Shown piece by piece: positions 1-14,784 of a stretch of DNA of 64,000 nt. The DNA is taken from assembly GCA_964291285.2 (NCBI GenBank), contig OZ219786.1, positions 1 through 64,000 of the forward strand. Reading direction: 5' to 3'. How positions within the stretch are numbered: the stretch's first letter is position 1; every line of letters begins with the position of its first letter. Under the pieces are notes generated by a model. It was not told the DNA's origin. It saw only the letters and a program-made list of their open reading frames with translations, and did no database searches. The position numbers were made by a program, and so were the translations under genes. The DNA is from Alphaproteobacteria bacterium (GTDB taxonomy: Bacteria > Pseudomonadota > Alphaproteobacteria > Bin95).

Positions 1-484
1 CTTGCAGCACCGGGATGCCGCAGCCCTGGCAGAAGCGGCGTTTCTCCCGGGGGACGCGGGTCTTGCGGTCGTATTTCTTCCGGTTGTCGAGACACGGCTG
101 GCACGCGGAACGATCCGGAGCCGGCGGCCGGTCGCCGCATCGCGGACACAGCCCCTTCGACGCGCGTTCGGCGCGGCGGGCGCGGAGCATGTCCCGCGTC
201 CGGCGGGCGTGGATGTCGCCGCAGGGCTTGCAGCGGCGCCGCCCGGGCGCCGGGGGCGTCATGCCGCAATCGAGGCACAGGCGCAGCAGGGAGCGGCGAA
301 GCTTCCGGCGCCGGTTGCCCTCACGGGCTGCGTCGAGGCAGGGGCGGCAGTTCACGCGGCCGGCCTCGGGCGGACGGTCGCCGCAATGGGAACACAGGCC
401 CGCCGCCCGGCGCGCGTTGCGCGTCCGGTCGCTGCGGCGGACAGGGTTCCCGGTGTCGGCGGGTGGATGCGGTTTGCTGGTCAT
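1..484 (-). CDS. Tandem C4 zinc-finger repeat protein (partial, runs off the left end)
   Basis: Manual translation from ATG 484 (GGAG RBS upstream): MTSKPHPP...CSHC-x11-CRPC...CLDC-x11-CKPC...CPRC-x11-CQPC...CQGC, with Arg-rich linkers. Not in the ORF track because its stop lies outside the window. Confidence 0.8.
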   Translation of the reverse strand, partial: MTSKPHPPADTGNPVRRSDRTRNARRAAGLCSHCGDRPPEAGRVNCRPCLDAAREGNRRRKLRRSLLRLCLDCGMTPPAPGRRRCKPCGDIHARRTRDMLRARRAERASKGLCPRCGDRPPAPDRSACQPCLDNRKKYDRKTRVPREKRRFCQGCGIPVLQ

Positions 485-571
485 CGCGGCTCCCGGCGTG
501 TCGGTAGCGGGCGCGGCCCGGGCCGAACGGGGGGAAGCCGATCGGACGGCCGGGCGCAGGACTCACGCTGC

Positions 572-589
572 AAACCCCTTCCCGACCTT
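572..589 (-). repeat. Conserved upstream motif, copy 1
   Basis: AAACCCCTTCCCGACCTT, about 90 nt upstream of ATG 484. Confidence 0.85.
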
Positions 590-696
590 GGGGCTGCAAG
601 GAGCGCCGCCGCGGGAGCGGTGGCCAGCGGAGAGCAATGGCGCCGGCGAAGACAGACGGGTTCCCCGCCCCGGGACGGCATGCGAGGGGAAAACGG

Positions 697-726
697 AAAA
701 GCCCCGGAACCCGCAGGCTCCGGGGC
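697..726 (-). terminator. Intrinsic terminator after ssb
   Basis: GCCCCGGA/TCCGGGGC stem followed by a T-run on the minus strand, just downstream of the ssb stop at 740. Confidence 0.65.
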
Positions 727-739
727 GGAGGGCGCGCCA

Positions 740-1153
740 TCAGGCGGAGAAGTCCTCGTAGGCTTCCGGGGGCGGCGCCGGCGGCCGGTTGCCGCCGCCG
801 TCCGGCTTCCTGTCGAGGAAGTTGATGCAGCCGCGCGGGCCGACGACGATCTCGGTGGCGAACCGGTCGCTGTCCTCGCCGTCCTTGCGCCAGCTCCGGG
901 TGCGCAGCATCCCGGTGATGTGCGCCAGGCGGCCCTTGGCGGCGTGCTTGCGCAGCATCTTCACCAGGCCGTCCTGGTAGACGGCGATCCGGTGCCACTC
1001 GGTCCGCTCGACATACTCGCCGCTCTGGCGGTCCTTGTAGACCGTGTTGGTGGCGAGGGAGAAATTGGCGACGTCGCCGCCGCCGGGCAGGCTGCGGAAC
1101 TCGGGGTCGCCGCCCAGGTTGCCGATCAGGTCGACGCGATTGAGGCCGTTCAT
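740..1153 (-). CDS. ssb: Single-stranded DNA-binding protein (element-encoded)
   Basis: MNGLNRVDLIGNLGGDPEFR...FSLATN...ERTEWHRI...G.LRTRSW OB-fold motifs; GGAG RBS before ATG 1153. Confidence 0.95.
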   Translation of the reverse strand: MNGLNRVDLIGNLGGDPEFRSLPGGGDVANFSLATNTVYKDRQSGEYVERTEWHRIAVYQDGLVKMLRKHAAKGRLAHITGMLRTRSWRKDGEDSDRFATEIVVGPRGCINFLDRKPDGGGNRPPAPPPEAYEDFSA

Positions 1154-1204
1154 GGCGTTTGCTCCCTGCAGGAGGTTGATTGCGAGCTGTTGCAACTCAC
1201 CGCG

Positions 1205-1256
1205 AAAAGCCCCTTCCCGACCTTTGCGGCGTCGATGCCGCCGAAGGCCGGGAAGG
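1205..1256 (-). repeat. Conserved upstream motif, copy 2, within a long hairpin
   Basis: CCTTCCCGACCTT (1212-1224) pairs with AAGGCCGGGAAGG (1244-1256); about 57 nt upstream of the ssb ATG. Confidence 0.85.
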
Positions 1257-1261
1257 AGGAG

Positions 1262-1474
1262 CAGGCACAGTCGCAGGAGGGAGCGGCGCCGCCTCCGGCG
1301 CCGGTCTTTTTCGTTGTGGATGTCCAGACAGGGACGGCAGGACGTGCGGCCCTCTTCGGGCGCGCGGTTGCCGCAAGTGCCGCAGAGGCCGGCAGCCAGG
1401 CGGGCATTGCGCTTGCGGGGGGCGAGGCCCGGCCGACTGGCGCAATCGTCCGGCGCGCGGGCGGTGCAGGTCAT
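1262..1474 (-). pseudogene. Truncated paralog of the zinc-finger protein, in frame with ssb
   Basis: RNARLAAGLCGTCGNRAPEEGRTSCRPCLD...RRSLLRLCL matches RNARRAAGLCSHCGDRPPEAGRVNCRPCLD...RRSLLRLCL of the 484 gene. Similarity stops at ~1262 with no stop codon before ssb. Confidence 0.65.
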
Positions 1475-1555
1475 GGCAATACCCCGTGGAACGGAACGAT
1501 GGAAGGGGAGCGGGCCGCGCGGCGCCCCCGGAGGAGCGCCGCCCGAAGGACCGGC

Positions 1556-1867
1556 TCAGGACCGCTTGCGCCGGGCCTCGGCGAAGAGGCCGGTCGCCAG
1601 GTCGCCCCAGTACTGGATGCCGGAGCCGGCGGTCTTCTCGCCCTTGCAGATCAGGATCTCGTTGCGCGCCGGACGCAGCGCGCGCACGGTCGCCAGCGAC
1701 AGGGTGAGCGGGTGGCCCTTGCCGCCCGGCAGCCGGCGGATCTCGCCGTCGATCGTCGTGCGGTAGCGCTCGACCACATAGTGCCTGTCCTGCAGGCCGC
1801 GGCCGAAGACGTGCGTGAGGAAGGTGTTCGCATCGGGGCGAAGGACGGACGCATTGGCAGCGCTCAT
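1556..1867 (-). CDS. Hypothetical protein (103 aa)
   Basis: AGGAG RBS, globular-looking sequence, preceded by the conserved motif. Confidence 0.7.
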   Translation of the reverse strand: MSAANASVLRPDANTFLTHVFGRGLQDRHYVVERYRTTIDGEIRRLPGGKGHPLTLSLATVRALRPARNEILICKGEKTAGSGIQYWGDLATGLFAEARRKRS

Positions 1868-1935
1868 GTGCGATTTCTCCTGTTCGGGAAACGGGCGCGG
1901 GAGCCGGTCGGACGGCCGCCCGCGGGAATCGCACC

Positions 1936-1956
1936 GAAAACCCCTTCCCGACCTTT
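1936..1956 (-). repeat. Conserved upstream motif, copy 3
   Basis: GAAAACCCCTTCCCGACCTTT, about 74 nt upstream of ATG 1867. Confidence 0.85.
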
Positions 1957-2116
1957 CGGACGGCAGGCCGGCAACGCCGCCCGCCGGGAAACGGCAGCCG
2001 GTCGCACAGGGGAGGCCGCAACGGCCCGGAACGCCGGGGGCGGATTGCGGGAGATGGCAGCCGGGATGCCGGCGGAAAGCCCGATGGCGGATCGATGCCG
2101 CGGGCAGGCCACCATG

Positions 2117-2150
2117 AAAAACCCCTCCCCGGCCTGTCGCCGGGGAGGGG
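2117..2150 (-). terminator. Intrinsic terminator / degenerate copy of the upstream motif
   Basis: Perfect 12-bp stem CCCCTCCCCGGC-ctgtc-GCCGGGGAGGGG followed by TTTTT on the minus strand, downstream of the stop at 2177. Confidence 0.7.
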
Positions 2151-2176
2151 CGGGAACGGCGCCAGCAGAGACCCGG

Positions 2177-2719
2177 CTACTGCGCCGGAGCGGACTCCGG
2201 GGCGGCAGGCGCCGGTTGCGGCGCCCCGGGGAAACGGGCGCGCACGAAACCGAGAAGTTCGCGATGGTTGGCGCGGTTTTCGGCGACGCCGGCGGCCAGA
2301 CGCTCCATGGCGGCCGCCTGTCGCGCCTCCGCCGCCTCGCGCTTCGCCTCGCCCGCCGCAAGGTCCGCCTTCACCCCGTCAATCCGGGCAGACAGGCGTT
2401 TCTCGGTTTCCGTCAGGTCCGCCTTCACCTCGTCGATCCGGTCGGTCAGGCGCTTTTCCACCCGGTCGATCCGGGCGCTGAGGCCGGTCTCGACCCCACC
2501 GATCTGAACGGTGAGACGCCGTTCGACCCCGCCGATCTGAGCGGTGAGACGCCGTTCGACCCCGTCGATGCGGATGTCGAACCAGGCCAGCATGCCGACC
2601 AGAAAGGCCAGGAAGACGCCCAGCACGGTGGCGGAGGGCAGGATCGCCTTCCAGCTGCCGTCGCCAACGACGAAAATGCCGCGCTGCGGGGCCGGGGGGG
2701 TGGTATCGGGAGAGGTCAT
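2177..2719 (-). CDS. Membrane-anchored coiled-coil protein with 11-aa (hendecad) repeats
   Basis: TM segment VLGVFLAFLVGMLAWF, then IDGVERRLTAQ / IGGVERRLTVQ / IGGVETGLSAR / IDRVEKRLTDR. Confidence 0.8.
   Translation of the reverse strand: MTSPDTTPPAPQRGIFVVGDGSWKAILPSATVLGVFLAFLVGMLAWFDIRIDGVERRLTAQIGGVERRLTVQIGGVETGLSARIDRVEKRLTDRIDEVKADLTETEKRLSARIDGVKADLAAGEAKREAAEARQAAAMERLAAGVAENRANHRELLGFVRARFPGAPQPAPAAPESAPAQ
2490..2569. repeat. 33-bp coding tandem repeat (about 2.4 near-identical units)
   Basis: TCGACCCC(A/G)CCGATCTGA(A/G)CGGTGAGACGCCGT at 2490-2522 and 2523-2555, partial at 2556-2569. Confidence 0.85.
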
Positions 2720-2795
2720 GGCCTCGTCTCCTGTCTGTCGGGAGTATGGGATCGGAACGCGCCGAAGGCAAGCCGCGCGCGCCCCGGCGCACCCG

Positions 2796-2816
2796 GAAAA
2801 ACCCCTTCCCGACCTT
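2796..2816 (-). repeat. Conserved upstream motif, copy 4
   Basis: GAAAAACCCCTTCCCGACCTT, about 83 nt upstream of ATG 2719; TTCCCG...CGGGAA hairpin. Confidence 0.85.
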
Positions 2817-2891
2817 CCGGCGCCGGACCGGGAACCGACGCGCCGGCGGGGAGGCTCCGGACTTCGCGGCCGCGGCGCTGCCGCCCGCCTG

Positions 2892-3908
2892 TCAGTCGAA
2901 CAGCCCGCTGGCCGCGAGCCAGGCGCGGAACCGGGCGGGCCCGAGCGCCAGCAGCTCGTCATTGGCGTCCTTCGCGCGGGGGACGATCCGGTCGAGCAGC
3001 ATGGCGGAACCGGCATGCTCCCGGCAGAGCGCGACCCAGGCGCTCTCGCCCGCCGGGTCGCGGTCCTGGACGAGGGTCGCGCGCCGGACGCCCGCGGGCA
3101 GGCCGACGCGGTGGACGCGCCCGGCGGAGAGCGCGGCGGCAACGGCGATATCCCGGCGCCCGCCCGCGCCGAGCGCCCCCGCCATGGCGAGCGCGTCCTC
3201 GACGCCCTCGGTCAGCACCAGGCGGCGCGCGTCGTCCGCCGGCCACCAGACGGCGCCCGTAGATAGGCGCCCGCTGGTGCGCTTCGGCCCCTCGATCGGG
3301 GCCTTGCGCCCCTCGCCGGTCAGGAATATTCGCTGCAGGCCCTCCAGCGTGCCGTCAAGGGCGCGGACCGGCGCGAGCAGGGCCGGCAGCTCGCGCTTCC
3401 CGCCGTCCACCTGCACCCAGACATCGGGGCGGAACCGGAGGCCTGCGGCATGGGCGGCCTCCGGGGCCAGGCCGCGGGAGGCCAGATAGCGCCCGGCCGG
3501 ATCGTCGGGCCGGACCGGCGCCGCGCCCTCGAGAACCCGTTCGAGTCCCCTCTGCCTCTCCGGCGGCGCGCCGTCCTGCCGGCGGGGGCGCTCATACTCC
3601 GGCAGGGCGAGGAAGCGGCGCGCCTCGTCGGCCGCCTCGCCGATCGTGGCGAGGCTGCGGACGGCGCGGATCAGGTCCAGCGGGCTGCCCCGGTCCTTCG
3701 GGCTCGCCCAGTCCCTCCAGTAGCCGCGCCAGCGTCCGGCGAGGTTCACCCGCAGCGAGGCGCCCTCCTCGCCGGCCGTGCTGCCCACCTGCCAGAAGTT
3801 GCCGTTGCGCCTGCCGTTCGGAAGGTAGTGGCGGCAGACCGCCTCGATATCGGCCGCGAGCAGGGCGGACAGTTCCTTCAGGCTGTGGGTTGTCGGATCG
3901 GAGGGCAA
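2892..3908 (-). CDS. Toprim-domain primase-like protein of ICE/plasmid type
   Basis: EAVCRHYLPNGRR.G..W.VG N-terminus; RYLASRGL; LQRIFL...GRKA; Toprim LVLTEGVEDALA and D.D motifs; TTG start. Confidence 0.88.
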   Translation of the reverse strand: MPSDPTTHSLKELSALLAADIEAVCRHYLPNGRRNGNFWQVGSTAGEEGASLRVNLAGRWRGYWRDWASPKDRGSPLDLIRAVRSLATIGEAADEARRFLALPEYERPRRQDGAPPERQRGLERVLEGAAPVRPDDPAGRYLASRGLAPEAAHAAGLRFRPDVWVQVDGGKRELPALLAPVRALDGTLEGLQRIFLTGEGRKAPIEGPKRTSGRLSTGAVWWPADDARRLVLTEGVEDALAMAGALGAGGRRDIAVAAALSAGRVHRVGLPAGVRRATLVQDRDPAGESAWVALCREHAGSAMLLDRIVPRAKDANDELLALGPARFRAWLAASGLFD

Positions 3909-3972
3909 GGCGCGGCCTCCCCTTTCCCCGGCCGTCCCGGCGCTGTCGCCGGGACGGCCTTGCGCGCGGCGC

Positions 3973-4335
3973 TCAGAACGGACGGATCCTGCAGAGTTCC
4001 GGATCGCGGCGCCCGCGCTCGTAGTTGAGCACCGCCCAGGCCGCGATCTCGAGCGCGGCCAACAGCGGGATTTCCATGCGCCCGGCCTGCTCCTTCGCGA
4101 AATGGAACGCCGCCTCGAGCGCGGTCTCGTCGATGGCGAGGTTGAAGCCGGACTCCCGCCCGAGCCTGGCGGTCAACTCGGAGAGCTTCTGGAGGTCACA
4201 GGTCCGCGGGCGAGGCTCGAAAGCCGGGCCCGGATCGGGCAGCGGCTCGTAGTCGTACTCGTGGAAGTCCTCGTCCGGATCCTCCCAGGCGTGCCAGTCC
4301 CGGCAGTAGCCCTCGAAGTCGATGACGTTGGACAT
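3973..4335 (-). CDS. Hypothetical protein with an acidic N-terminus
   Basis: Strong AGGAGG RBS; MSNVIDFEGYCRDWHAWEDPDEDFHEYDYE. Confidence 0.7.
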   Translation of the reverse strand: MSNVIDFEGYCRDWHAWEDPDEDFHEYDYEPLPDPGPAFEPRPRTCDLQKLSELTARLGRESGFNLAIDETALEAAFHFAKEQAGRMEIPLLAALEIAAWAVLNYERGRRDPELCRIRPF

Positions 4336-4414
4336 GCGCGTGTTCCTCCTGCGAAGTTGAGACGCCGGCCGGTCGGGGCCGGCACAGGGGCCGGGCTTTC
4401 CTTGTCTGCGGCGT

Positions 4415-5998
4415 TCATGCGCCCTCGTCTGCGGCATGGCGCGAGATCAGCTCGAGGATCGCCGCAATGTCGGGAACCGTCTCCACCTCGACGCGTCCGC
4501 GGCCCTTTGACGGGCGGACCTCGATCCGGGCGACCAGGTCCCGGATGGCGAGCAGGGCCTGCTCGCGCCGCCCGGCCCGCGCGCCGCCCGCGATGGCGCG
4601 CCGGAGCCCGGCGACCCGGTCGCGCATGAACTTCTCCACGCTGAAGCCCGCGGGCGGCGGCGGTCCCGGCAGCCGCTCCAGTTCGGCGAGCGCCTCGTTG
4701 CGCGCGCGCTCGAGGGCCAGAAGGCGCTCGCCGATGCCCGTCGAGGGGATGCCGCTCTCGATCGCGGCAACCAGGCGGGAGATCCCGGCGCCGGCGGCCC
4801 CGGCCCTCTCCCGGAGTTCCTCGCGCCGGACCGCGGTCCCGCGTTCGGCGGCGGCGAACAGGCCGCGCCAGTCGCGCTCGCGCGACAGCATCCAGGCGAA
4901 GAGCCGCCGCACGCCAAGGTCTTCCAGCATGTCCAGCCGGATCCCGCGGTTGTTGGTGCAGCTGTCCGGGTCGCGCCGGCGGGCGAGGCAACGGTAGTAG
5001 CCCATCCCGGCGATCGTCATGCGCTCGCCGCAAACGCCGCAGCGGACCCGCGCCGTCAGCGGATAGGCCGCCTTGCGGTAGCGGGTCACCACGGTGTGGT
5101 GGCGGTTCCTGCGGCGCCCGACCTCGTCCTGGACGGCCTGCCAGGCCGTGTCGTCCACGATCCGCAGTTCGGGGGCTTCCACGACGGTCCAGTCCTCGCG
5201 GGGGACGGCAACGAAATGGCGCCGCCCGGTGCCCGGGTGACGCCGGGAGCGGGTGCGCCCGTAGACAAGCCGCCCGCAGTAGATGTCGTTGCGCAGCACG
5301 CCGCTTCCTTCCCGGCCGCGCACGGCGCCAGCGGTCCAGGGCTTGCCGCCGGGCCCGGCCACGCCTTCCCGGTTGAGCAGCACGGCAATCTGCTGCGGGC
5401 TCATGCCGTCGAGATAGAGCCGGTAGATGCGCCGGACCGTCCCGGCCTCGTCGGGGTCGATCGTGCGCTGGCCCCGGACGGGCTTGCCGCTCTCGGAGAT
5501 GTAGTTGGCTATCCTGTAGCCGTATATGCAGGAGCCGATCATTCGCAGGTCGTGGAGGGCTTCGATCTGCCCCCGGCGCGTCTTGGCGCCGATATTGTCG
5601 ATGACCATCTCGCTCACAACCCCCTTGATGTGCGCATGGAGGGAGTCGACCCGACCGTCCTCCAGGCTGTACAGATTGATCCCCAGAAACCGCAGTTCGC
5701 GGTAGAGCCAAGCCATGTCGGCGGTGCTCCTGGCGAGCCGGTCCAGGCCCTCGACGCAGACGCCGTCGAACCGGCGCGCCCGGGCGTCGTCGAGCAGACG
5801 GCGAAGCCCCGGGCGCAGCTGCATGGCCGCGCCGGTGAGTTCCGGATCGGTGTATTCGCCCGCGATCACGCCGCCAAGTGCGGCGACGCGGTCGCGGCAC
5901 AGGCGCAACTGGCCCGCGATCGAGGTCATCTCCTGCAGGGGCGAGGAGTAGCGCGCATAGATCGCGAAGCGCGCGATGGCGCCGGGCGGTCCGTTCAT
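4415..5998 (-). CDS. Large serine recombinase (integrase type)
   Basis: IYARYSS catalytic serine; RPGL..LL; LDRLARS; recombinase domain; zinc ribbon CGVCG...YYRC; C-terminal coiled coil. Confidence 0.95.
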   Translation of the reverse strand: MNGPPGAIARFAIYARYSSPLQEMTSIAGQLRLCRDRVAALGGVIAGEYTDPELTGAAMQLRPGLRRLLDDARARRFDGVCVEGLDRLARSTADMAWLYRELRFLGINLYSLEDGRVDSLHAHIKGVVSEMVIDNIGAKTRRGQIEALHDLRMIGSCIYGYRIANYISESGKPVRGQRTIDPDEAGTVRRIYRLYLDGMSPQQIAVLLNREGVAGPGGKPWTAGAVRGREGSGVLRNDIYCGRLVYGRTRSRRHPGTGRRHFVAVPREDWTVVEAPELRIVDDTAWQAVQDEVGRRRNRHHTVVTRYRKAAYPLTARVRCGVCGERMTIAGMGYYRCLARRRDPDSCTNNRGIRLDMLEDLGVRRLFAWMLSRERDWRGLFAAAERGTAVRREELRERAGAAGAGISRLVAAIESGIPSTGIGERLLALERARNEALAELERLPGPPPPAGFSVEKFMRDRVAGLRRAIAGGARAGRREQALLAIRDLVARIEVRPSKGRGRVEVETVPDIAAILELISRHAADEGA

Positions 5999-6102
5999 GG
6001 CCGGTCCTTCGGGTATCGGATGACCGCACACTCTGGCAACGGGCGCCCCGCCGCGGCAACCGGGACGGCTTCCGCTCCCGGCAGACAACCGGCCGCTCGC
6101 CG

Positions 6103-6810
6103 TCATCGCCGCGCCCGGCGCCATCCGGCGGCCCGGGCGTCCGCCTCGCTGCAGAACCAGCGCTCGCCCTTCGAGGTGTTTATGCGGGTCCGGTCGTAAT
6201 GCTCGGCCCCGGGCACATGGTAGATGCGCCCGTGCCGCGAGATGTTGCCCTTGATGAGGCAGGAGGAACCCGCCTGCGGGGGAGGGGTGGCCCCGTGCCG
6301 CCGGTGTATCTCCGCCCGGCGGTTCCGGTCCTGCCTGCGCCAGCGCCAGGGCGCGGTGAAGTCGCCGGACCACAGGCCGAGCCGCCCGGCGCGGGCCGCG
6401 TCCTCGTCCGGGACATACCGCATCGACCAGCGCCGGTATGCCAGCGCCAGGCCCTGGCGCACGAGGTCCTGCTGCACGTCCCGCCCGGCCGCGAAGCAGG
6501 CCGCGACCGCGCGCCCGTAGCGGTCGCGGTCCCGGACCTCGCAGCGGACCGGGGTCCGCCCGACGAGCCTGCGCATCGCCCGCGTCGCCGCCCGCCCGCA
6601 GGCCCATCGGCGCCCGCCGCGCGAGCAGGTCTGGCGGGCCTCCGGCGCGTCGATCCCGTGAAGGCGCACACGCCGGCCCTGCACGGCAAGCGTGTCGCCG
6701 TCCACGACCCGGGCCTTGCCGGTGAGGGTTTCGGCTTCAGCCGGCAGGGCGAAGGCAAGCAGCGCGGCTGCCGCGAGAACGGAGGCGAGGCGTCGGAAAA
6801 GGCATGGCAT
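6103..6810 (-). CDS. Secreted thermonuclease (SNase) with an ExoI-like C-terminal domain
   Basis: Signal peptide; VVDGDTL...RVRLHGIDAPE...DRYGR; C-terminal CLIKGNIS..RIYHVPG...ERWFCSE..A.AAGWR. Confidence 0.92.
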   Translation of the reverse strand: MPCLFRRLASVLAAAALLAFALPAEAETLTGKARVVDGDTLAVQGRRVRLHGIDAPEARQTCSRGGRRWACGRAATRAMRRLVGRTPVRCEVRDRDRYGRAVAACFAAGRDVQQDLVRQGLALAYRRWSMRYVPDEDAARAGRLGLWSGDFTAPWRWRRQDRNRRAEIHRRHGATPPPQAGSSCLIKGNISRHGRIYHVPGAEHYDRTRINTSKGERWFCSEADARAAGWRRARR

Positions 6811-6877
6811 CGGGGTGGTTGACTCCTGGAGAGGCGCCGCGCTTTGACGAGCGCGTTCGGATAGGGCCTGTCGTTTG

Positions 6878-7156
6878 TCAGCCATTCGTCAGCAGCTCCC
6901 TGATGCGCGCCTTCGCGGCGCGGAGATCGGCGCGATACATGTCCTTCGCGCCTTTCGGGAGATGGGCGCGCAGCACCTTGCAGGGCTCCCAGACAGCGGA
7001 ACCGCGGCCGATCTTCACGAGCTCGCCCAGAACGTCGCGACGCCGGCCCTTCGCGGCACTGTGCCATTCATGTGCGACGGCAACGGTCCGGCGATCGCTG
7101 GCCGAATGGAATGCGTCCGGCTGCGTGAAGACGCGCCCGAAAACGATCCTGGACAT
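6878..7156 (-). CDS. Hypothetical protein (92 aa)
   Basis: Co-oriented ORF with protein-like composition. Confidence 0.55.
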   Translation of the reverse strand: MSRIVFGRVFTQPDAFHSASDRRTVAVAHEWHSAAKGRRRDVLGELVKIGRGSAVWEPCKVLRAHLPKGAKDMYRADLRAAKARIRELLTNG

Positions 7157-7254
7157 CGATCGCCTACCCCTCGCCCGCGTGCCTGGGCCCGGACGTTGCG
7201 GGTAACGGGATACGGGTGTCGGTCATCATTGTCTCCGGTCGATCGAGGTTCCGG

Positions 7255-7434
7255 TCAGGCGCCGCTTGCGATCCCGGCGTCGATTTCGGCCTGCTCGCGC
7301 AGCCAGTGCTCCCTGTCGGTCAGGAGCCGCTGGACGTATCCACAGCCCTGGTATTCCCTGGCCCGGGGCTCGATCCGGCTCCAGGTCTGCGCGTCGCAGT
7401 TCGGGCATCGGGGGTCCTCCGGCAGTATGATCAT
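7255..7434 (-). CDS. Small zinc-ribbon-like protein (59 aa, below the ORF-track cutoff)
   Basis: AAGGAGG RBS; MIILPEDPRCPNCDAQTWSRIEPRAREYQGCGYVQRLLTDREHWLREQAEIDAGIASGA. Confidence 0.6.
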   Translation of the reverse strand: MIILPEDPRCPNCDAQTWSRIEPRAREYQGCGYVQRLLTDREHWLREQAEIDAGIASGA

Positions 7435-7500
7435 GTGGGACAGGCCTCCTTGGGTCAGTGGGGGGCGGCAGCAGGGGCCAGCGCCGGGTCATTCAGGGCC

Positions 7501-8785
<1,285 letters not shown>

Positions 8786-8793
<8 letters not shown>

Positions 8794-8962
8794 GGGGCCA
8801 CGACCGGGTTCGAGGCTGGCGGCGCCGGCGGATGAGCGCGGCCGTCAGGACCGTGACGATAAACATGGCGACGAGAGCCGGGTAGGCGGTAAAGGCGAAT
8901 GCGTCGATGAGCACGAGCAGGTCCGGCGGGGGCTCCCTGGACGGCGTGGCATACCGGGTCAT
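8786..8962 (-). CDS. Small single-pass membrane protein (58 aa, below the ORF-track cutoff)
   Basis: Start overlaps the upstream stop (ATGA) and stop overlaps the DUF5131 start (ATGGCTGA); hydrophobic PALVAMFIVTVLTAALI followed by RRRR. Confidence 0.55.
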
Positions 8963-9423
8963 GCCGGCTTCTCCGGGTCGGGGCCTCCGGCGCCCGCGGT
9001 CCCGGCGGAGCTCGCGGCCGGCATATCCGCCATTGCCGGGGTTTCGGGGATCAACGCGGCCGCAACCACTGCCGCGCGCTCTTCTCCGAGCACCTCCCGA
9101 AGGAGTTCGACCGCCCGCTCGCGCTTGCCTTCGCGGACCATCGCCCTGAGCTTAGCCTCCAGCAGGGCGCGCATGCTGTCAGCGAGATCCGACGGCGCTT
9201 CCGCGCCGGAACCCATGTCGCGGGCGGCAGACGCCAGGGCAAGGGAGAGGCCGCGCTGTTCCCCTGCATCCAGCACCAGCGGCCGGGCAGAAGCCGTCTC
9301 CGCAAACGGGTCCACGGTCAGCGCGCATTCCCGAAGGAACCGGGCGGCCGACATGCCCCGTTCGGCGGCCCAGGTCTTGATCTGCGCCCATTCCTCCCCG
9401 GTCATGGAGACCGTGCGGTTCAT
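8959..9423 (-). CDS. Ribbon-helix-helix (MobC/CopG-like) protein, paralog A
   Basis: RTVSMTGEEWAQIKTWAAERGMSAARFLRECAL fits the RHH pattern. Confidence 0.7.
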   Translation of the reverse strand: MNRTVSMTGEEWAQIKTWAAERGMSAARFLRECALTVDPFAETASARPLVLDAGEQRGLSLALASAARDMGSGAEAPSDLADSMRALLEAKLRAMVREGKRERAVELLREVLGEERAAVVAAALIPETPAMADMPAASSAGTAGAGGPDPEKPA

Positions 9424-9449
9424 GCCGGGCTAGCGGTTGCGCGGTTTCT

Positions 9450-9962
9450 TCATGCGTCCTCTCCGAACCCGGGGCGGCCGGCGTCCGCGGTCCCGGCGGG
9501 GCTCACGGCCGGCAAATCCGCCATTGCCGGGGTTTCGGGGATCAACGCGGCAGCGATCGCCGCCGCACGCTCCTCGCCGAATACTTCCCGCAGCAGTTCC
9601 ATCGCCCTTTCGCGCTTGCCCTGGCGGACCATCGCCCTGAGCGGTTCCTCCAGCATCGCGCGGATGTCGTCCCGGTACTGCGCCAGCGCCTCCTCGTCGG
9701 CAGCATCGAGCCCGCGCGCCAGTGCCGACACGCCATCCGCGAGGCTGTGTTGCCGCCCGGCGTCCAGGACCGGCGCCCGCGCCTTGCCGCCCTTCGCCGA
9801 CAGGTCCACGTTCAGCGCGCATTCGAACCACCAGGCCGATACCGACATGCCGGCGCGGCGCGCGCCATCCCGGACCATTTCCCAGTCCTCGCCGGTGGCG
9901 CAGACAGTGCGGTGGCCAGCTTTCGACCGGCCCGCCCCCGGTCTCGTCCGCATCTTCTTCAT
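9450..9962 (-). CDS. Ribbon-helix-helix (MobC/CopG-like) protein, paralog B
   Basis: RTVCATGEDWEMVRDGARRAGMSVSAWWFECAL; C-terminal half nearly identical to paralog A (LRAMVR.GKRERA.ELLREV.GEERAA..AAALIPETPAMAD). Confidence 0.7.
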   Translation of the reverse strand: MKKMRTRPGAGRSKAGHRTVCATGEDWEMVRDGARRAGMSVSAWWFECALNVDLSAKGGKARAPVLDAGRQHSLADGVSALARGLDAADEEALAQYRDDIRAMLEEPLRAMVRQGKRERAMELLREVFGEERAAAIAAALIPETPAMADLPAVSPAGTADAGRPGFGEDA

Positions 9963-10231
9963 GTCGGTTCCCCTCGCGGCTCGCCGGCGGTCTTTGCCGG
10001 GCGCCTGCACCGCCGGCCTTCTGCCGGGCCGGCTTCCGGTGGCTGGCCGAGGGCGCCGTGCAGGCGGAATACAACCATGAACCAGGGCGCCTCCGGAATC
10101 TTCCTGACGGCCAGCCACCGGCTACGGGGATCGACGGCAATCCTCTCCAGGTAATGCCTCTGCTCCGCTCCGGAGGCCGGCCAGCGTTCGCGCCGCGCAA
10201 TGCGGCGCACGGTTTCGGCCAGGTCGCTCAT
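9959..10231 (-). CDS. Hypothetical protein (90 aa)
   Basis: ATGA overlaps with both neighbouring genes, suggesting translational coupling. Confidence 0.6.
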   Translation of the reverse strand: MSDLAETVRRIARRERWPASGAEQRHYLERIAVDPRSRWLAVRKIPEAPWFMVVFRLHGALGQPPEAGPAEGRRCRRPAKTAGEPRGEPT

Positions 10232-11301
10232 CGCCCGGCCTCGGGGCAGGCCGCGTGAATCCCGTCCGCGACCGGGAGCCCGCGCAGGGCCTCGGCGAGC
10301 TCGTCGCGCTGCCGTCGGTCGATCAGCAGGCAGAGACGGTGGAGCGCCGTGACCCGGTCGCGCGGCGCGATCTGCGACCAGGCGCTTTCCAGGCGGCCGA
10401 ATTGCTGCGCGCGCGTCGGCTCCTTCGGGGGCGCAGGCGGCGCGTCCGTCTTCTGCAGCAGCGCGGCGAGGGTTTCGGGAGGCTCATCGGTCTCGCGCAG
10501 CCGTTCAAGGGTGCGTTGTTGCTGGGCTTCCGAAAGGCCCGCGATCCGGTAGAGGTCCCCTTCCCGGCGCGCGATCGGGGTGCCTTCCAGCTCGTCCTGC
10601 AGTTCGGGCAGGATACGCTTTCCTATGCGCAGCGCGCGCGCGACCGTGCCCCTGGACAACGAGGTCAGGTCTGCCGTCTCTTCAACGAACGAAAGAGGCG
10701 GCGATAAATCAAGATCGAAGCATTCGATGTTGATTTTCTCCTGGTATTCTGCGCTCTTGCGGTCGCCGCCGTGGCGGGCGTCCGGGTGCAGTCTTCTATG
10801 AAGTTCCTCGCGCCTGGCAACGAAGCGGCCGCGGTGCAGCGGCGTGAGTTCCGATCGGATCAGGTTCTCGTCGACCTCCACCAGGGCGAGCATGTCCGGG
10901 CTCGGATCGTCGAGCACGAGGGCCTCGATCCGGCCCCATCCGAGACGCCGGGCCGCCTCCATACGGTGGGCGCCGGCAACGAGGGCGAAGCCTCCCCGGT
11001 CCAGGCCGCGCTCGTATTCGCCGGTATCGGGGTCGATGCCGAAATTGTGGCGGACCTGGATCGGGTTCTGGAGGCCGATCCGGTCCATCGACTCCGCGAG
11101 GCGTTCGACGACGGCTTCGTCGACCTCGCGCAGCCGCGGCCCGACGGCGATCTGCTCCAGGGCGATGGGCCAGGTGCTCCGCTGCCGCGCCGTCGACGGA
11201 TCGAGGCGGGAAACCCCGGCGACCGCGGCGGGATTGCGGCGGCGCCAGTCCTCGATGCGCTCGATGAACGCCCCGCCGCTGTTCTTCGGGGCCCGGCTCA
11301 T
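10228..11301 (-). CDS. parB: ParB-family partition protein
   Basis: LAESM..IGLQNPI.V; LVAGAHR.EA; ENLIRSELT; HGGDRKS; HTH. Confidence 0.9.
   Translation of the reverse strand: MSRAPKNSGGAFIERIEDWRRRNPAAVAGVSRLDPSTARQRSTWPIALEQIAVGPRLREVDEAVVERLAESMDRIGLQNPIQVRHNFGIDPDTGEYERGLDRGGFALVAGAHRMEAARRLGWGRIEALVLDDPSPDMLALVEVDENLIRSELTPLHRGRFVARREELHRRLHPDARHGGDRKSAEYQEKINIECFDLDLSPPLSFVEETADLTSLSRGTVARALRIGKRILPELQDELEGTPIARREGDLYRIAGLSEAQQQRTLERLRETDEPPETLAALLQKTDAPPAPPKEPTRAQQFGRLESAWSQIAPRDRVTALHRLCLLIDRRQRDELAEALRGLPVADGIHAACPEAGR
10706..10736. promoter_or_regulatory. AT-rich inverted repeat inside parB (candidate parS/operator)
   Basis: AAATCAAGATCGAA-gca-TTCGATGTTGATTT; 14-bp arms with one mismatch. 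Confidence 0.55.
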
Positions 11302-11975
11302 GCGACTGCCCTCAGCGCGCGCACCGGCCAGGCCAGCAGCGCGTCCGCCACGGCGCCGATCTCGGCCGCCGCCGCCCCGTGCGGATCGGACTCCACCACG
11401 CCCAGCCCGGCCCGGGTGGACCGCACGAAGGCGACGCGGTTGCGCACCGCGGCAGGCAGCATCTGCACCCCCTGTCGGGAGAGCAGGTCCCTGGCCTCGG
11501 TCTCCCAGTGCGCGGCCCGTGTCGGAACCGCGTTCAGCACCGCGACGGCCGGCGTCCCGGCCAGCGCGGCGACATCGAGGCTCGCGCGGACCGCGGCGAG
11601 GTCGAACAGCGACTGCCGGCAGGGCACGACCACGAGGTCCGCATGCCGCGCGCCGGCCACAGGACCGCCATCGGCCCCCATCGGGGTGTCGATAAGGATC
11701 AGGTCGGAGCCCTTCGCCAGGGCCCGCCCGATCTCCCGGTCGAGGCGGAGATACGGGCAATAGCGGATATCAGGCGCCGGGTCAGTGCGGAGATCGCCCC
11801 ACACGACGGCCGAGCAGTTGGGGTCGCAGTCGAGGACGGTGACCCGGCGGCCGGCCCGGACGGCATGGGCCGCGACATTGAGCGCCAGCGTCGTCTTCCC
11901 GGCCCCGCCCTTCTGGCTCACGAAGGCGAGGATGCGGGGCGCTGCAAACGCGGCGGAGTGCGATCGGTCATGCAT
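11298..11975 (-). CDS. parA: ParA-family ATPase (short plasmid type)
   Basis: SQKGGAGKTT deviant Walker A; LDCDP; IIDTP. Confidence 0.93.
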   Translation of the reverse strand: MHDRSHSAAFAAPRILAFVSQKGGAGKTTLALNVAAHAVRAGRRVTVLDCDPNCSAVVWGDLRTDPAPDIRYCPYLRLDREIGRALAKGSDLILIDTPMGADGGPVAGARHADLVVVPCRQSLFDLAAVRASLDVAALAGTPAVAVLNAVPTRAAHWETEARDLLSRQGVQMLPAAVRNRVAFVRSTRAGLGVVESDPHGAAAAEIGAVADALLAWPVRALRAVA

Positions 11976-11989
11976 GGGAGTGCTCCCTC

Positions 11990-13393
11990 CTAACGGCGGC
12001 GTCCCGCCGCCAGCGCTTGCGATGGCGGGCGGCGGGACGGCGCGGTTTCATTATCTGTTTCTTTCGGGTTAAGGGTGTCATGACCGTCACCCATGGGGGT
12101 GTCATGACTGTCACCCCTGGCCGCCGCTGGTGTCGCCCCGGAGGTGTCATGACCGTCACCCGCCGACGGGCGGGCGGCGGCGCTTTCGGCCGCCTCGCGC
12201 GCGGCCGCCTCGCGGTTCAGGTCCATGATGCGCAGCAGCGTCATCCGGTGCTGGCGCGGGTAGTCGAGGCCGGACGGGAAGGCGTGGTAGCGGTTGGCCC
12301 GGTTCCGGCGCGGGACCACCTGCAAATAGCCGGCCTCCCTGCACTTCTCGGTCCAGCGCTGGATCCGCCGTGCGGGCACTCCGAAGATCGCCTGCAGCTC
12401 CCTCACCGTGACGACCCAGCCGTCGATGTTCGGGCCGTCCCGGTAGGCGATGAACGACAGGAACGCGCGCGCGGCGACATCCTTGATGTCGTGGAGCATC
12501 ATGCACGACGCCATCCGGTCTCCCGCCATCTTCGGATCGAACTTCTCCGGCTCGGGAACCATGTAAAGCCTGGCCTCGGGATCGGCGGCGGCGCCCTCCG
12601 GCAGCGCCAGCTCCGGGGCGGGCGCCGCCTCGGCAACGCCGTATTCCAGCGTGACGCCCGGAAGTTCCTGCTCCAGGAAGCGCGCGATGCGCTCGCCATG
12701 GTCCTGGCGAACCCGGTCCCGGATGAACGCGCTCGGGGCCAGCAGCACGACGCCGGCGCCGCGGGCCTCCATGCCAAGACCGGCGAGCCAGGCATCGAAC
12801 GCCGTCTCGCCGACCGCCTCCCGCAGGCGCTCGCGGACGGCGTCCCACGCCCGCTTCACCGGCTGGGCCGGAGCTTCGGCGGGTTCGTCAAATTTGGCGC
12901 CGGCGCCAAATTCGGCCTCCCCGGCCTCGCGCGCCACCCGCGCCGGTGCTTCGGCAGGCCCGCCGGTTCCTGCAGCACCGCCGGATCCGGTGTCTGCCGG
13001 ATCGACGTCCGCGCCCTCGGGCGCCGCCTCCGGGGACGGCTCAAAATTGACGCCGGCGCCAAATTCGGCCTCCCCGGCCTCCGCCGGCCGGCGCGGCCGC
13101 GCAAGCCGTTTGAGAACGGCCTTCCCGCCCTCGAGCGAAAGCTCGGCGGCCGAAACCCCGGAGCGGTGCAGCTTCATGGCCCGGTTGCAGACGCTGTACG
13201 ACCAGCCGGCGGTTTTCAGCGTCTTCATCCAGACGCCGTGCGCACACTCGCCTCTGAGCTCGGTCAGCCAGGCGCCGAAATCGAGCAGCCTGCTGAAATA
13301 TGCGACCGAGCCGCGCGCCGCGAACTCGTAGCTGTCCTGTCTTTCCCGCAGGATTTCGGCAAGCGCGTGCGGATCGCAATACAGGGCCGTCAT
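11990..13393 (-). CDS. Putative replication initiator: DUF3102-like, DnaA N-terminal and winged-HTH domains
   Basis: GAWL.ELR...HG.W..L...WS...NRAMKL; WDAVRERLR...GETAFDAWL...LLAPSAFIRDRV; ELQAIFGVPARRIQRW...CREAGYL....RANRY; iterons near the 3' end. Confidence 0.7.
   Translation of the reverse strand: MTALYCDPHALAEILRERQDSYEFAARGSVAYFSRLLDFGAWLTELRGECAHGVWMKTLKTAGWSYSVCNRAMKLHRSGVSAAELSLEGGKAVLKRLARPRRPAEAGEAEFGAGVNFEPSPEAAPEGADVDPADTGSGGAAGTGGPAEAPARVAREAGEAEFGAGAKFDEPAEAPAQPVKRAWDAVRERLREAVGETAFDAWLAGLGMEARGAGVVLLAPSAFIRDRVRQDHGERIARFLEQELPGVTLEYGVAEAAPAPELALPEGAAADPEARLYMVPEPEKFDPKMAGDRMASCMMLHDIKDVAARAFLSFIAYRDGPNIDGWVVTVRELQAIFGVPARRIQRWTEKCREAGYLQVVPRRNRANRYHAFPSGLDYPRQHRMTLLRIMDLNREAAAREAAESAAARPSAGDGHDTSGATPAAARGDSHDTPMGDGHDTLNPKETDNETAPSRRPPSQALAAGRRR
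12074..12161. repeat. Three 19-bp iteron-like direct repeats (candidate origin)
   Basis: GGTGTCATGAC(C/T)GTCACCC at 12074-12092, 12098-12116 and 12143-12161; AT-rich tract at ~12046-12072. Confidence 0.75.
12891..13081. repeat. Duplicated in-gene palindrome
   Basis: Perfect AATTTGGCGCCGGCGCCAAATT at 12891-12912 and imperfect AAATTGACGCCGGCGCCAAATT at 13044-13065, both followed by CGGCCTCCCCGGCCTC. Confidence 0.75.
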
Positions 13394-13887
13394 GGCCGCT
13401 CTCCGCTGCCGGGCCGCTCCCGGAACACGAATGCGTCAATCCGCCGCAGAATATTTGTCCGGTTCCGGACCGTCCGGGACCTGCGGCCGGGGCCCGCGGC
13501 AGGCTTGCCCGCCAGAGGCCGGGCCCCCGGCCGGCTGGCGAATCGCCGCCCCCCGGAGCGGGCGAACGCCGGCAGACATGCGCAGGACCCGGCCGGTCCC
13601 GCGGCATTTCCGGGCAAGCCGGCGGCGTCCGCAACGCCCGCCCGCCCAAGCGGAAAGTCCGCCCCTTTCCGGCGAATGCCGTCCGCCGGACCCGCGAAAC
13701 CGCCGTCGGGCGCCCGGAGGCGGCCGGGGGCCGGGTGCTGTCTGCCCCTTCGCCCGGAATTCGGGGAAAGGCTGTCCGGTATCGATACGCGGGCGTTCAG
13801 CGCGCGGCCTGGAAAGTTCCCTGTTTCCATAGAGTTGCGGTGAAACCGGCAGCGGCGGAAAAATCCCCCGCTCTACCGACCCGGCGC

Positions 13888-13916
13888 TTGACATTGCAGC
13901 GGCGGCAGCCGATTAT
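13888..13916 (+). promoter_or_regulatory. Sigma70-like promoter for the candidate sRNA
   Basis: TTGACA-N17-GATTAT. Confidence 0.5.
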
Positions 13917-13922
13917 CCGGAC

Positions 13923-14040
13923 ACGTGATGGCCGGATATCGGGCTGCTGTTTGCTGCTGCGCTGGGTAGGTGGCATCGAACCAGGGACCGAACCGCATCC
14001 CCGAAGGCCGCCGGACCAGAACCGGCGGCCTTCATTTTTT
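13923..14040 (+). ncRNA. Candidate small RNA (~120 nt)
   Basis: Lies between the promoter and a strong intrinsic terminator; no credible ORF. Confidence 0.4.
14003..14040 (+). terminator. Intrinsic terminator
   Basis: GAAGGCCGCCGG-accagaa-CCGGCGGCCTTC-ATTTTTT; perfect 12-bp stem. Confidence 0.8.
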
Positions 14041-14053
14041 ATGCGCTTGCCCC

Positions 14054-14082
14054 TTGACCTCGACATACCCGGCAAATACCGT
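14054..14082 (+). promoter_or_regulatory. Candidate outward-facing promoter at the element end
   Basis: TTGACC-N17-TACCGT. Confidence 0.4.
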
Positions 14083-14133
14083 CTCCCTCGAACGTGCTTC
14101 GTTGAACAATCTTCCGAATGCGTCGGTCGGCGT

Positions 14134-14784
14134 GTCAGCACGTTCCTGCTGCCGCTCTTCCTGCAGAACGTCCAGGGCTATCCCGTGCTGGCTGCGGGCT
14201 GGGTGCTGTCGGCCCGGGGCGTCGGCACGGGCATTGCGATGTTCCTTGCGGGCGTGCTGGCGAACCGGGTCGCCGGCAAATATCTGATCCTCGCCGGGCT
14301 CGCCGCCGTCGGGATATCCAATGTCTGGATGACGGGTTGGAACCACCAGGTCGGGGCCGCCGAAATCGTCTGGGCGACCGTGCTGAACGGCGCCGGAATG
14401 GGCCTGATGTGGGTATCGCTCACAACCGTTACCTTCTCGACGCTCGCCCAGCGCTACCGCACCGAGGCGGCGGCGCTCTTCGCGCTGATACGGTCCATAG
14501 GCGCGTCGATGGGCACCTCCATCGTGGTCGCCGTGCTGACTCGCAGCGCCCAGGCGAACTACACGGCGTTGAAGGACTTCGTCTCGGACTACAGCGAGGC
14601 GCTGCGCCTCTCGCCCTGGGACCTCGATAATGAGGCCGCGGTAGCGGCGCTGCGGCGGGAAGTGCTGCTGCAGGCCGAAACCATCGCCTTCGTTAACGAC
14701 TTCGCGCTGTTGGCGATTACTATCGGCGTTGCCGCGCCGCTGGTGCTGCTGTTGCGCAAGCCGGGCAGGGGAGCGGGCGAATGA
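14134..14784 (+). pseudogene. 3' half of a DHA2 (EmrB/QacA) MFS efflux permease, 5' part missing
   Basis: VSTFLLPLFLQNVQGY...RSIGASMGTSI...AFVND.F are C-terminal DHA2 motifs; upstream sequence is not transporter-like. Confidence 0.8.

Follow-up and report, generated by a model that had tools for sequence, protein, structure and literature searches.

In the first minutes after DNA has entered a new cell, its survival is decided by establishment genes. To our knowledge, few modes of control have been described for such genes, namely Frpo promoters on single-stranded DNA (ssDNA), ArdK with its CUP elements, and Reg576; for the CUP/ArdK case, the source is reportedly Delver and Belogurov (1997). 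In this study, we analyzed a stretch of 64,000 nucleotides (hereafter the window) at the start of contig C2 (OZ219786.1, forward strand) in the genome of an uncultured alphaproteobacterium (GCA_964291285.2; 6.13 Mb, 68% G+C, five contigs). In it a short motif precedes consecutive genes of a block that includes ssb and lies within a putative integrative mobilisable or conjugative element.

The closest described systems are as follows. The CUP elements of IncN plasmids (pKM101/R46) are binding sites of one plasmid-encoded regulator, ArdK (PMC6289460). On the Bacillus plasmid p576, a single repressor, Reg576, is served by short identical motifs before four establishment-gene promoters, and de-repression after transfer is transient (PMC6294495). 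Frpo is a long stem-loop mimicking the −35, −10 and UP elements of duplex DNA (PMC11541004). The PeSL sequences of T4-like phages are small terminator/promoter composites that flank small variable genes and are exchange points between otherwise unrelated sequences (PMC4122927). The stoperators of the L5 repressor in cluster A mycobacteriophages are more than 20 asymmetric 13-mers placed in short intergenic spaces and oriented with transcription, and their reversal loses repression (PMC9283540).

A 15-mer heading the genes of an ssb block

The 15-mer AAGGTCGGGAAGGGG, given on its sense strand, which is the minus strand of the window (plus-strand letters CCCCTTCCCGACCTT), occurs there in four exact copies (Table 1). 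A first-pass annotation of this DNA had reported these four sites, each 57–91 nt upstream of a start codon with its own ribosome-binding site (RBS). Both statements held: a direct pattern search returned the same positions, 57 to 90 nt separate the end of the motif from the A of the ATG, and an RBS of the GGAG or GGGAG type lies before each of the four motif-headed genes. All genes in 1–14149 are on the minus strand. When up to three mismatches were allowed, the window gave 10 matches compared with a mean of 2.8 for shuffled sequence, and 0 of 100 shuffles reached 10.

Window 1–14149 is part of a ~22.7-kb repeat that is present four times in the genome at 96%–99.9% identity (C3 copy, 99.6%; second C2 copy, 96%–97%; the C5 copy has an insertion). 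Since contig C2 starts inside this element, the window shows only 14 kb of it. Genome-wide, the motif has 16 exact copies, four per element copy and always at these sites; allowing one mismatch gave 26 matches, against 0 and 4 for a reversed-pattern control. The rest of the element holds four further, variant copies, and the complete element has eight copies, each heading one of the eight consecutive genes that lie between a Toprim gene and the TrwC relaxase gene. The nine genes upstream of this array carry no copy with up to three mismatches except for one chance-like match inside an open reading frame (ORF). Five more distant relatives of the ssb block (~83% identity) are also found in the genome. 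Four of them are mini-arrays of ssb and the genes for a multi-zinc-ribbon protein (ZnF) and a 103-aa protein (p103), with A at position 12 in 12 of 12 copies where the main element reads ...GGGAAGGGG. The fifth (the C4 block) has two copies, both AAGTTTGGGAAAGGG, showing the same three changes with and without a hairpin partner. Within an element, motif variants thus change together.

The 16 exact copies, like the 37 matches to the degenerate pattern used for the search of relatives (AAGGYSGGGAARGGG), are without exception located in ssb-type blocks. This confinement rules out a dispersed repeat of the repetitive extragenic palindrome (REP) or miniature inverted-repeat transposable element type, in keeping with the earlier distinction of the motif from an ordinary genome-wide REP. 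Conservation in homologous elements, which had been expected, was found as well: arrays are present in 9 of 16 other genomes of the genus (0–1 match per genome for the reversed control). In an order-level search, two further genera of the family were covered by 10 genomes each: one genus lacked the pattern, and in the other a single genome had it (two copies). Other families yielded one single match in one of 16 genomes.

Arrays within the genus comprise 3–12 copies on the same strand, spaced 350–1700 nt apart. Across 18 fetched loci, 104 copies are on the majority strand, that of the genes, and the five on the opposite strand are all hairpin partner arms that fit the pattern by chance. An RBS, a start codon and an ORF with high G+C at third codon positions (GC3) follow 33–101 nt downstream (median 61) of 101 of the 104 copies, compared with 222 of 1080 random positions. 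Because of this, the long ORFs of our first ORF caller that contained 17 of the 104 copies were judged to be spurious, as can arise in high-G+C DNA. The proposal of a shared cis-element that acts gene by gene and is confined to the block is borne out by all eight array genes of the element and by these 101 copies. Among the products of the genes headed by the motif in these loci are Ssb, Toprim proteins, several zinc-ribbon paralogues, coiled-coil membrane proteins, a beta-clamp homologue and many small proteins of no known family. The homologue of the DNA polymerase III beta clamp (PF02767, E 3.8e-17) is a motif-headed cassette in some arrays, next to ssb and the Toprim genes (L015:8363-9517 and L012:8852-9409).

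Searches for described counterparts returned little. In Rfam, window 1–14200 gave only a chance-level sX11 match (24.6 bits against a gathering score of 70), and a blastn search (word size 11) of window 1–4400 against 72,556 plasmids matched only 816–1130, which is ssb coding sequence.

The element encodes, in the sense direction, a DnaA_N-domain protein, ParA and a 256-aa protein, then a NikA-like protein, a DUF5131 protein, an SNase-type nuclease and a large serine recombinase, followed by a 154-aa protein and a Toprim/DUF7146 protein. Next come a coiled-coil membrane protein, p103, Ssb and the 403-aa ZnF. Beyond the contig start, the C3 copy continues with a second coiled-coil protein, a 58-aa protein, a second Toprim protein, an 85-aa protein, a 418-aa TrwC-domain protein and a 1797-aa TrwC relaxase-helicase. 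The motif block thus has the first Toprim gene on one side and the relaxase genes on the other, and its genes point towards the TrwC genes. Judged by gene content, including the TrwC relaxase, serine recombinase and ParA, the element is an integrative mobilisable or conjugative element; the conjugative or mobilisable setting suggested earlier agrees with the presence of these genes and of the NikA-like, ssb and Toprim genes.

Four further observations concern the element and its surroundings. One of its ends adjoins a 1474-bp insertion sequence (IS) that has many copies in this IS-rich genome. The two Toprim/DUF7146 paralogues of each element (window 2934-3881 and L009 ~7939-8897) share 76% DNA identity over ~960 nt. 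Upstream of the TrwC-domain gene, L009 6790-7370 (minus strand) contains a ~90-nt direct repeat in two copies and an unusually A+T-rich patch; it has no motif copy and is a candidate origin of transfer or promoter region. About 12 kb from the element is a tandem array (G000 C3:1880651-1881923) with a period of 105 nt and ~12 units of 92%–97% identity.

Table 1. Coordinates of motif copies, associated structures and genes (window positions unless a contig is named)
Feature	Position	Strand	Remarks
Motif copy 1	575..589	-	90 nt before ATG (484) of ZnF; no strong partner arm (RNA z +0.30; ssDNA z -0.13)
Motif copy 2	1210..1224	-	57 nt before ssb ATG (1152); descending arm of strong hairpin, then CTTTTC
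Motif copy 3	1941..1955	-	73 nt before ATG (1867) of p103, the 103-aa gene
Motif copy 4	2802..2816	-	82 nt before ATG (2719) of coiled-coil membrane protein gene
Ascending arm of the hairpin upstream of ssb	1244..1258	-	inverted motif copy, 2 mismatches
Second box directly after motif copy 3	1925..1940	-	semi-conserved, consensus about TTGTTCGGGYGRWAT
Stretches equivalent to second box, other copies	559-574, 1194-1209, 2786-2801	-	
Sigma-70-like promoter	2743..2771	-	TTGCCT (2771-2766), 17-nt spacer, CATACT (2748-2743); read by eye
Canonical intrinsic terminator	701..726	-	right after ssb stop (740), upstream of motif copy 1
Canonical intrinsic terminator	2121..2151	-	after stop (2177) of coiled-coil gene; arm resembles motif, 3 mismatches (z -3.07)
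13-bp hairpin	3920..3960	-	after 154-aa gene, then RBS of Toprim gene; not a motif copy (z -3.38)
ZnF, 403-aa multi-zinc-ribbon gene, 5' part	2..484	-	cut by contig start; complete in C3 copy (L009:10191-11399)
ssb	740..1152	-	PF00436, E 4.6e-22
Remnant of second ZnF gene, first ~70 codons	1260..1474	-	in frame through hairpin into ssb
p103, 103-aa gene	1556..1867	-	no known family
Coiled-coil membrane protein gene	2177..2719	-	
Toprim/DUF7146 primase-like gene	2892..3908	-	motif-headed array begins just downstream
Other element copies	C2:457343-480094; C3:1894289-1917031; C5:9367-34071		

Anatomy of the site, its junctions and its leader

Site anatomy was assessed in 113 distinct contexts. 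Twelve of the 15 positions are invariant among them, a figure to be read with the fact that the degenerate pattern by which the contexts were chosen itself fixes these 12. The next ~16 nt are semi-conserved (about TTGTTCGGGYGRWAT) and fixed positions upstream of the motif carry almost no information. These 12 positions stay the same in at least 10 species-level genomes, in which the flanks and loops of the site have diverged. The 15-mer and the following ~16 nt always open the leader of the next gene.

The motif also takes part in a hairpin in about half of the contexts. Pairing with the upstream 60 nt is stronger than with shuffled versions (z < −2) in 42% of contexts, a strong hairpin (reaching −20 kcal/mol) with the motif as its descending arm is formed in 54 of 113, and an ungapped inverted motif copy lies upstream in 59 of 113; the remaining half or so lacks a partner arm and still keeps the letters of the motif. 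Within the 54 hairpin contexts, position 6 faces a complementary base in 47 (C:G 38, G:C 9), A12 variants pair with T in six of six, and the partner of T5 is mostly G (39 of 54). The compensating partner bases at positions 6 and 12 show that the hairpin is under selection in that half. A T-rich tail (at least four T in the next 8 nt) follows 29 of the 54 hairpin copies compared with 18 of the other 59. In the hairpin cassette classes, the hairpin begins no more than ~20 nt from the upstream stop codon, with 40–62 nt between stop and motif. About half of the copies are therefore built like an intrinsic terminator for the cassette before them, with a GC-rich hairpin after a stop codon and then a T-rich stretch. 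This layout of hairpin and tail may also bear some resemblance to relaxase nic sites. The two states are unevenly distributed: strong hairpins are found in 34 of 43 AAGGTCGGG-type and nine of 49 AAGGTGGGG-type copies, and the former type fills the first half of arrays and the latter the second half (arrays in genomes G010, G011 and G016).

The window itself is poor in such hairpins. The first-pass annotation had most copies as one arm of a stem-loop, which does not apply here since only the ssb copy folds better than shuffles (RNA z −2.91, ssDNA z −4.06; RNA folds of copies 1, 3 and 4, z +0.30, −1.02 and +1.42). One of the four copies combines a hairpin, a T-run and an upstream stop, and a terminator scan listed none of the four. 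Copies 1 and 3 are weak hairpins that lie downstream of separate canonical terminators (701–726 and 2121–2151, respectively). Two degenerate copies that had been proposed were not upheld either. The one at 2122, a match with three mismatches, is an arm of the terminator at 2121–2151, whose perfect 12–13-bp hairpin and T-run, 26 nt past a stop codon, mark it as an ordinary terminator. The one at 3919 is beyond three mismatches, and what is found there is a hairpin and the RBS of the Toprim gene.

Comparison of elements supports the earlier idea of modular cassettes. Cassette set and order vary between arrays, and blocks of homology shared by two elements open precisely at the motif and close shortly before the following copy (e.g., the element's own 6131-6557 with L012 7035-7461, and L012 7034-7472 with L014 5805-6245). 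The remnant at 1260–1474 reflects a ~940-nt deletion ending at the hairpin, and the readthrough ORF into ssb is 244 aa long; the C4 block carries an intact 363-aa ZnF gene at the corresponding place.

Recognizable promoters do not coincide with the motif. A consensus scan of 1–14200 with a cut-off of 9 of 12 consensus matches found no sigma-70-like site near any copy, and 13888–13916 was its only promoter-like site; the site at 2743–2771 scores 8 of 12 and was hence unlisted. That site starts 29 nt after motif copy 4 and is conserved in all relatives of the coiled-coil cassette. In another cassette class, an extended −10 is seen by eye ~45 nt after the motif, and in the class of the 85-aa gene the motif is only 33 nt from the ATG, where such a promoter does not fit. 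These distances indicate that the motif has no fixed place relative to recognizable promoters. A search for sequencing runs that hold this DNA listed three of DNA type, all from one study, and none of RNA. Three other signals were considered and rejected: the GG-N10-GC spacing of sigma-54 promoters fits copy 1 by eye and not the other three, and both an alphaproteobacterial LexA box and a small upstream ORF from a TTG after the motif fit only some cassette classes.

The box that follows the motif can pair within the leader in some cassette classes. After copy 3, GTGCGATT in this box can pair with AATCGCAC just before the ATG. By eye and in folds, the same kind of pairing with the bases just before the AUG is seen in the p103 and ZnF classes, where class differences appear, in our by-eye reading, to be compensatory.

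A likely origin of the motif is provided by the p103-ZnF pair. Neither protein belongs to a Pfam or NCBIfam family, and for ZnF an Atlas search gave only double-zinc-ribbon leads. Relatives of p103 occur in nine of 401 sampled genomes of the class, several copies in each, and number 339 in a collection of species-representative genomes. Eighty of these loci were kept (L047-L126), from metagenome-assembled genomes labelled Alphaproteobacteria, Gammaproteobacteria, Nitrospinota, Poribacteria and others, and a ZnF homologue directly follows p103 in 73 of the 80; the pair is found several times per genome. A conserved leader of ~100 nt, with a hairpin in its middle, precedes these p103 genes; two of 11 predicted pairs show double changes among 50 aligned leaders of the 339. 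Rfam had no match at the leader in 15 p103 loci of other taxa, and RNAalifold gave no consensus structure for 27 mixed-taxon leaders. MAFFT places the genus motif against the GAGAGG...GGCCGKGAGSGGGG segment of p103 leaders from other taxa; five genomes of such taxa have about one box of this kind for each p103 gene and none in front of other genes. The simplest history compatible with these observations is that, in this genus, a leader signal of the p103-ZnF pair was copied until it stood before each gene of the block. p103 and its zinc-ribbon partner with their conserved leader point to a widespread, unnamed two-gene module.

Readings of the motif

We favor the reading, at a probability of about 0.38, that the motif is a signal of cassette junctions, joined to the terminator before it and recognized by a factor that the element encodes; we infer all its functional steps from comparative evidence. 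The letters that are kept without a hairpin, the fixed orientation and the concerted variants together suggest that the 15-mer is read as a sequence by an element-borne factor, and the compensated hairpins point to a terminator-arm role as well in half of the copies. Each junction would then be a composite of the terminator of the preceding cassette and a recognition site gating the next. p103 and the multi-zinc-ribbon protein are the best candidate readers because their own conserved leader aligns with the motif. Such a factor may bind the duplex in one orientation, and the site could serve as an operator or a transcription roadblock that silences every cassette in the resident element. Upon transfer into a factor-free cell, the whole gene set would be expressed for a short time, so that all motif-headed genes of the block are probably under one switch. 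Precedents for such control are Reg576 (PMC6294495), ArdK with the CUP elements (PMC6289460) and the stoperators (PMC9283540). As a by-product, and with the PeSLs (PMC4122927) as a parallel, the shared junction could act as a crossover point for the gain, loss and reordering of cassettes. An antiterminator target and a cassette-shuffling site, both proposed earlier, are possible roles.

Several findings weigh against this reading. Pfam/NCBIfam domain scans, which covered 18, 10 and 21 proteins, found no known DNA-binding regulator domain in the scanned element proteins except in the NikA-like protein, which is encoded outside the array. The AlphaFold2 model of p103 (pLDDT 78), which predicts a beta-rich protein, had no match to a fold in the PDB at E <= 0.001. 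The variable distance between motif and promoter is unusual for a classical operator. In addition, a purely structural role in termination accounts for part of the conservation, as seen from the compensatory partner changes in half of the copies, and gene conversion between copies could give the concerted variants. A bolder variant of the favored reading, which we consider doubtful, is that the 15-mer is the site of a regulator of an undescribed kind (p103 and/or the arginine-rich ZnF), its leader signal having been copied before every establishment gene, and that one factor reading the sense strand as RNA or ssDNA would decide between termination and read-through at each junction upon entry into a new cell.

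Among the alternatives, the one that survives best, though we regard it as unlikely, holds that cassettes with promoters of their own are simply separated by intrinsic terminators or insulators, that recombination at these copies and gene conversion keep them alike, and that no dedicated reader exists. Much of the site anatomy is what such terminators would give: strong hairpins (54 of 113), inverted copies (59 of 113), compensation at positions 6 and 12, T-rich tails that are commoner in hairpin copies, and hairpins close to the upstream stop. Even the undoubted terminator of the window at 2121–2151 has a near-motif arm, two cassette classes have sigma-70-like promoters downstream of the motif, and block boundaries fall at the motif, as would suit shuffling terminator/promoter composites such as the PeSLs in the account of PMC4122927. 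The other half of the copies, however, keeps the 15 letters with no partner arm, and copies 1 and 3 are weak hairpins that already follow separate canonical terminators. Terminators also do not need fixed letters, whereas 12 of 15 are invariant here although flanks and loops have diverged.

The location of all copies on the coding strand would suit a signal in RNA, which we consider rather unlikely. An RNA-binding factor encoded by the element would hold the purine-rich 15-mer in the nascent transcript and block the terminator hairpin or direct processing, coupling both read-through and translation across successive cassettes. T5 usually faces G (39 of 54), a wobble available on the sense strand only; this excess is nonetheless explained by opportunity alone, given the number of G positions. 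The pairing of the post-motif box with pre-AUG bases in the p103 and ZnF classes, by eye and in folds, is in favor of such a signal, as are the ability of the motif to pair with a pyrimidine tract before the Shine-Dalgarno sequence in p103 leaders and the conserved hairpin of the homologous leader elsewhere, with double changes in two of 11 pairs. Motif-to-downstream pairing is weak, however (mean duplex −13.7 kcal/mol compared with −16.3 for shuffled upstream sequence), and RNAalifold returned no structure on the mixed alignment. The visible promoters downstream of the motif are a further difficulty since transcripts from them would lack it, and no RNA-binding domain was found in the proteins scanned with Pfam/NCBIfam.

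That the motif and the following box form a dedicated promoter, recognized by a sigma factor, activator or polymerase specific to the element and making a separate transcription unit of each cassette, appears improbable to us. The conserved block of ~30 nt is contiguous and ends in an A/T-containing part within a 68% G+C genome, its distance to RBS and start is tight, and the order in the window is stop, terminator, motif, gene. If the pairing between the box and the pre-AUG bases is real, the box would be transcribed, which would place the start site at or just after the motif. Nevertheless, no match to sigma-70 hexamers at sensible spacing was found, the sole promoter-like site in 1–14200 is elsewhere, neither a sigma factor nor an RNA polymerase of the element is among the Pfam matches, and two cassette classes have a sigma-70-like promoter of their own further downstream.

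Still less probable is a function in the single-stranded state, either as Frpo-like ssDNA promoters or as single-strand initiation (ssi) sites at which the Toprim primases would prime about once per kilobase and thereby speed complementary-strand synthesis. It would suit the strict single-strand orientation, the presence in arrays of ssb, two to three Toprim paralogues and, in relatives, a beta-clamp gene, and the direction of the genes towards the relaxase gene, as in leading regions, in which several Frpo-like elements are known according to PMC11541004. The stems are only 10–18 bp long, though, and lack hexamers, compared with the long stem-loop that the same source describes as required. 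Template-strand ssDNA folds of the four upstream regions (z −0.13, −4.06, −0.86 and +1.05 for copies 1–4) are no better than shuffles in three of four cases, the only strong one being an 18-bp hairpin with no −35/−10 hexamers; half of all copies have no hairpin; and the frequent T:G at position 5 becomes a C:A mismatch on the template strand. These folds and the promoters visible downstream of the motif also speak against the Frpo-type promoter that the first-pass annotation had raised, and the plasmid search returned the coding part of ssb alone.

We find it scarcely credible that the motif is the target of a site-specific recombinase or HUH nuclease (the large serine recombinase or the extra TrwC-domain protein) that captures and shuffles cassettes in the manner of integron attC sites. 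In favor of this are the homology blocks that open at the motif, the differences in cassette content between elements, the ability of copies to form hairpins as imperfect inverted repeats with one conserved arm, and the presence on the element of a serine recombinase gene and, standing alone, a 418-aa TrwC-domain gene. Against it, there is no integron integrase, cassettes come with leaders and, in places, promoters of their own, half of the copies lack an inverted arm, a portion of a conserved gene leader in array-free taxa is what the motif aligns with, and crossover at 15–30 nt of identity needs no special enzyme. Integron attC sites as such were rejected: the sole recombinase is the large serine recombinase, not IntI, and the cassettes have own leaders and, in two classes, sigma-70-like promoters.

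Comparison with described systems

Frpo and ssi elements found in leading regions of F-like and IncI plasmids resemble the array in being repeated, in the same orientation, before ssb and other early genes, as PMC11541004 presents them. Their defining long stem-loop with hexamers is absent here, by folds and by promoter scan. The PeSLs share with the array that small genes are replaced at boundaries set by a conserved composite motif, as the motif-bounded homology blocks illustrate. They belong to hyperplastic regions of phages, whereas the present array is on a mobilisable or conjugative element, and the promoter in a PeSL is an early promoter of host type (PMC4122927), whereas our motif has no sigma-70 match.

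Stoperators come close in geometry, with 104 copies here on the gene strand and the five opposite ones being partner arms. Their repressor is a two-domain helix-turn-helix (HTH) protein, and no HTH or repressor domain was found in the proteins scanned here. A role as terminator arm is not described for stoperators in the passages of PMC9283540 cited here.

CUP/ArdK offers the likeness of a conserved element repeated before several establishment genes, which here are eight of eight array genes. It differs in that there is no sequence likeness, as the plasmid collection matched only in ssb coding sequence by blastn, and in that general domain scans, in which ArdK itself was not a query, found no ArdK-like HTH protein. 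In addition, the core here is one asymmetric 15-mer, often the arm of a terminator hairpin, that heads every gene of the block. The regulation by Reg576 is, by analogy, our favored working model for the array. The operators of Reg576 are, in the account of PMC6294495, paired 7-mers at fixed places by clear sigma-A promoters with a known ribbon-helix-helix repressor, whereas the site here is single and locked in orientation, its distance to promoters varies and its reader is only a candidate.

Next to these modes of control, the array is a fourth layout, from an uncultured lineage: one 15-mer, locked in orientation, precedes as many as 12 genes in a row, is often joined to the terminator before it and is also the seam where cassettes are exchanged. 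One short site with two candidate readers provides a testable handle on how early genes may be co-regulated and reshuffled.

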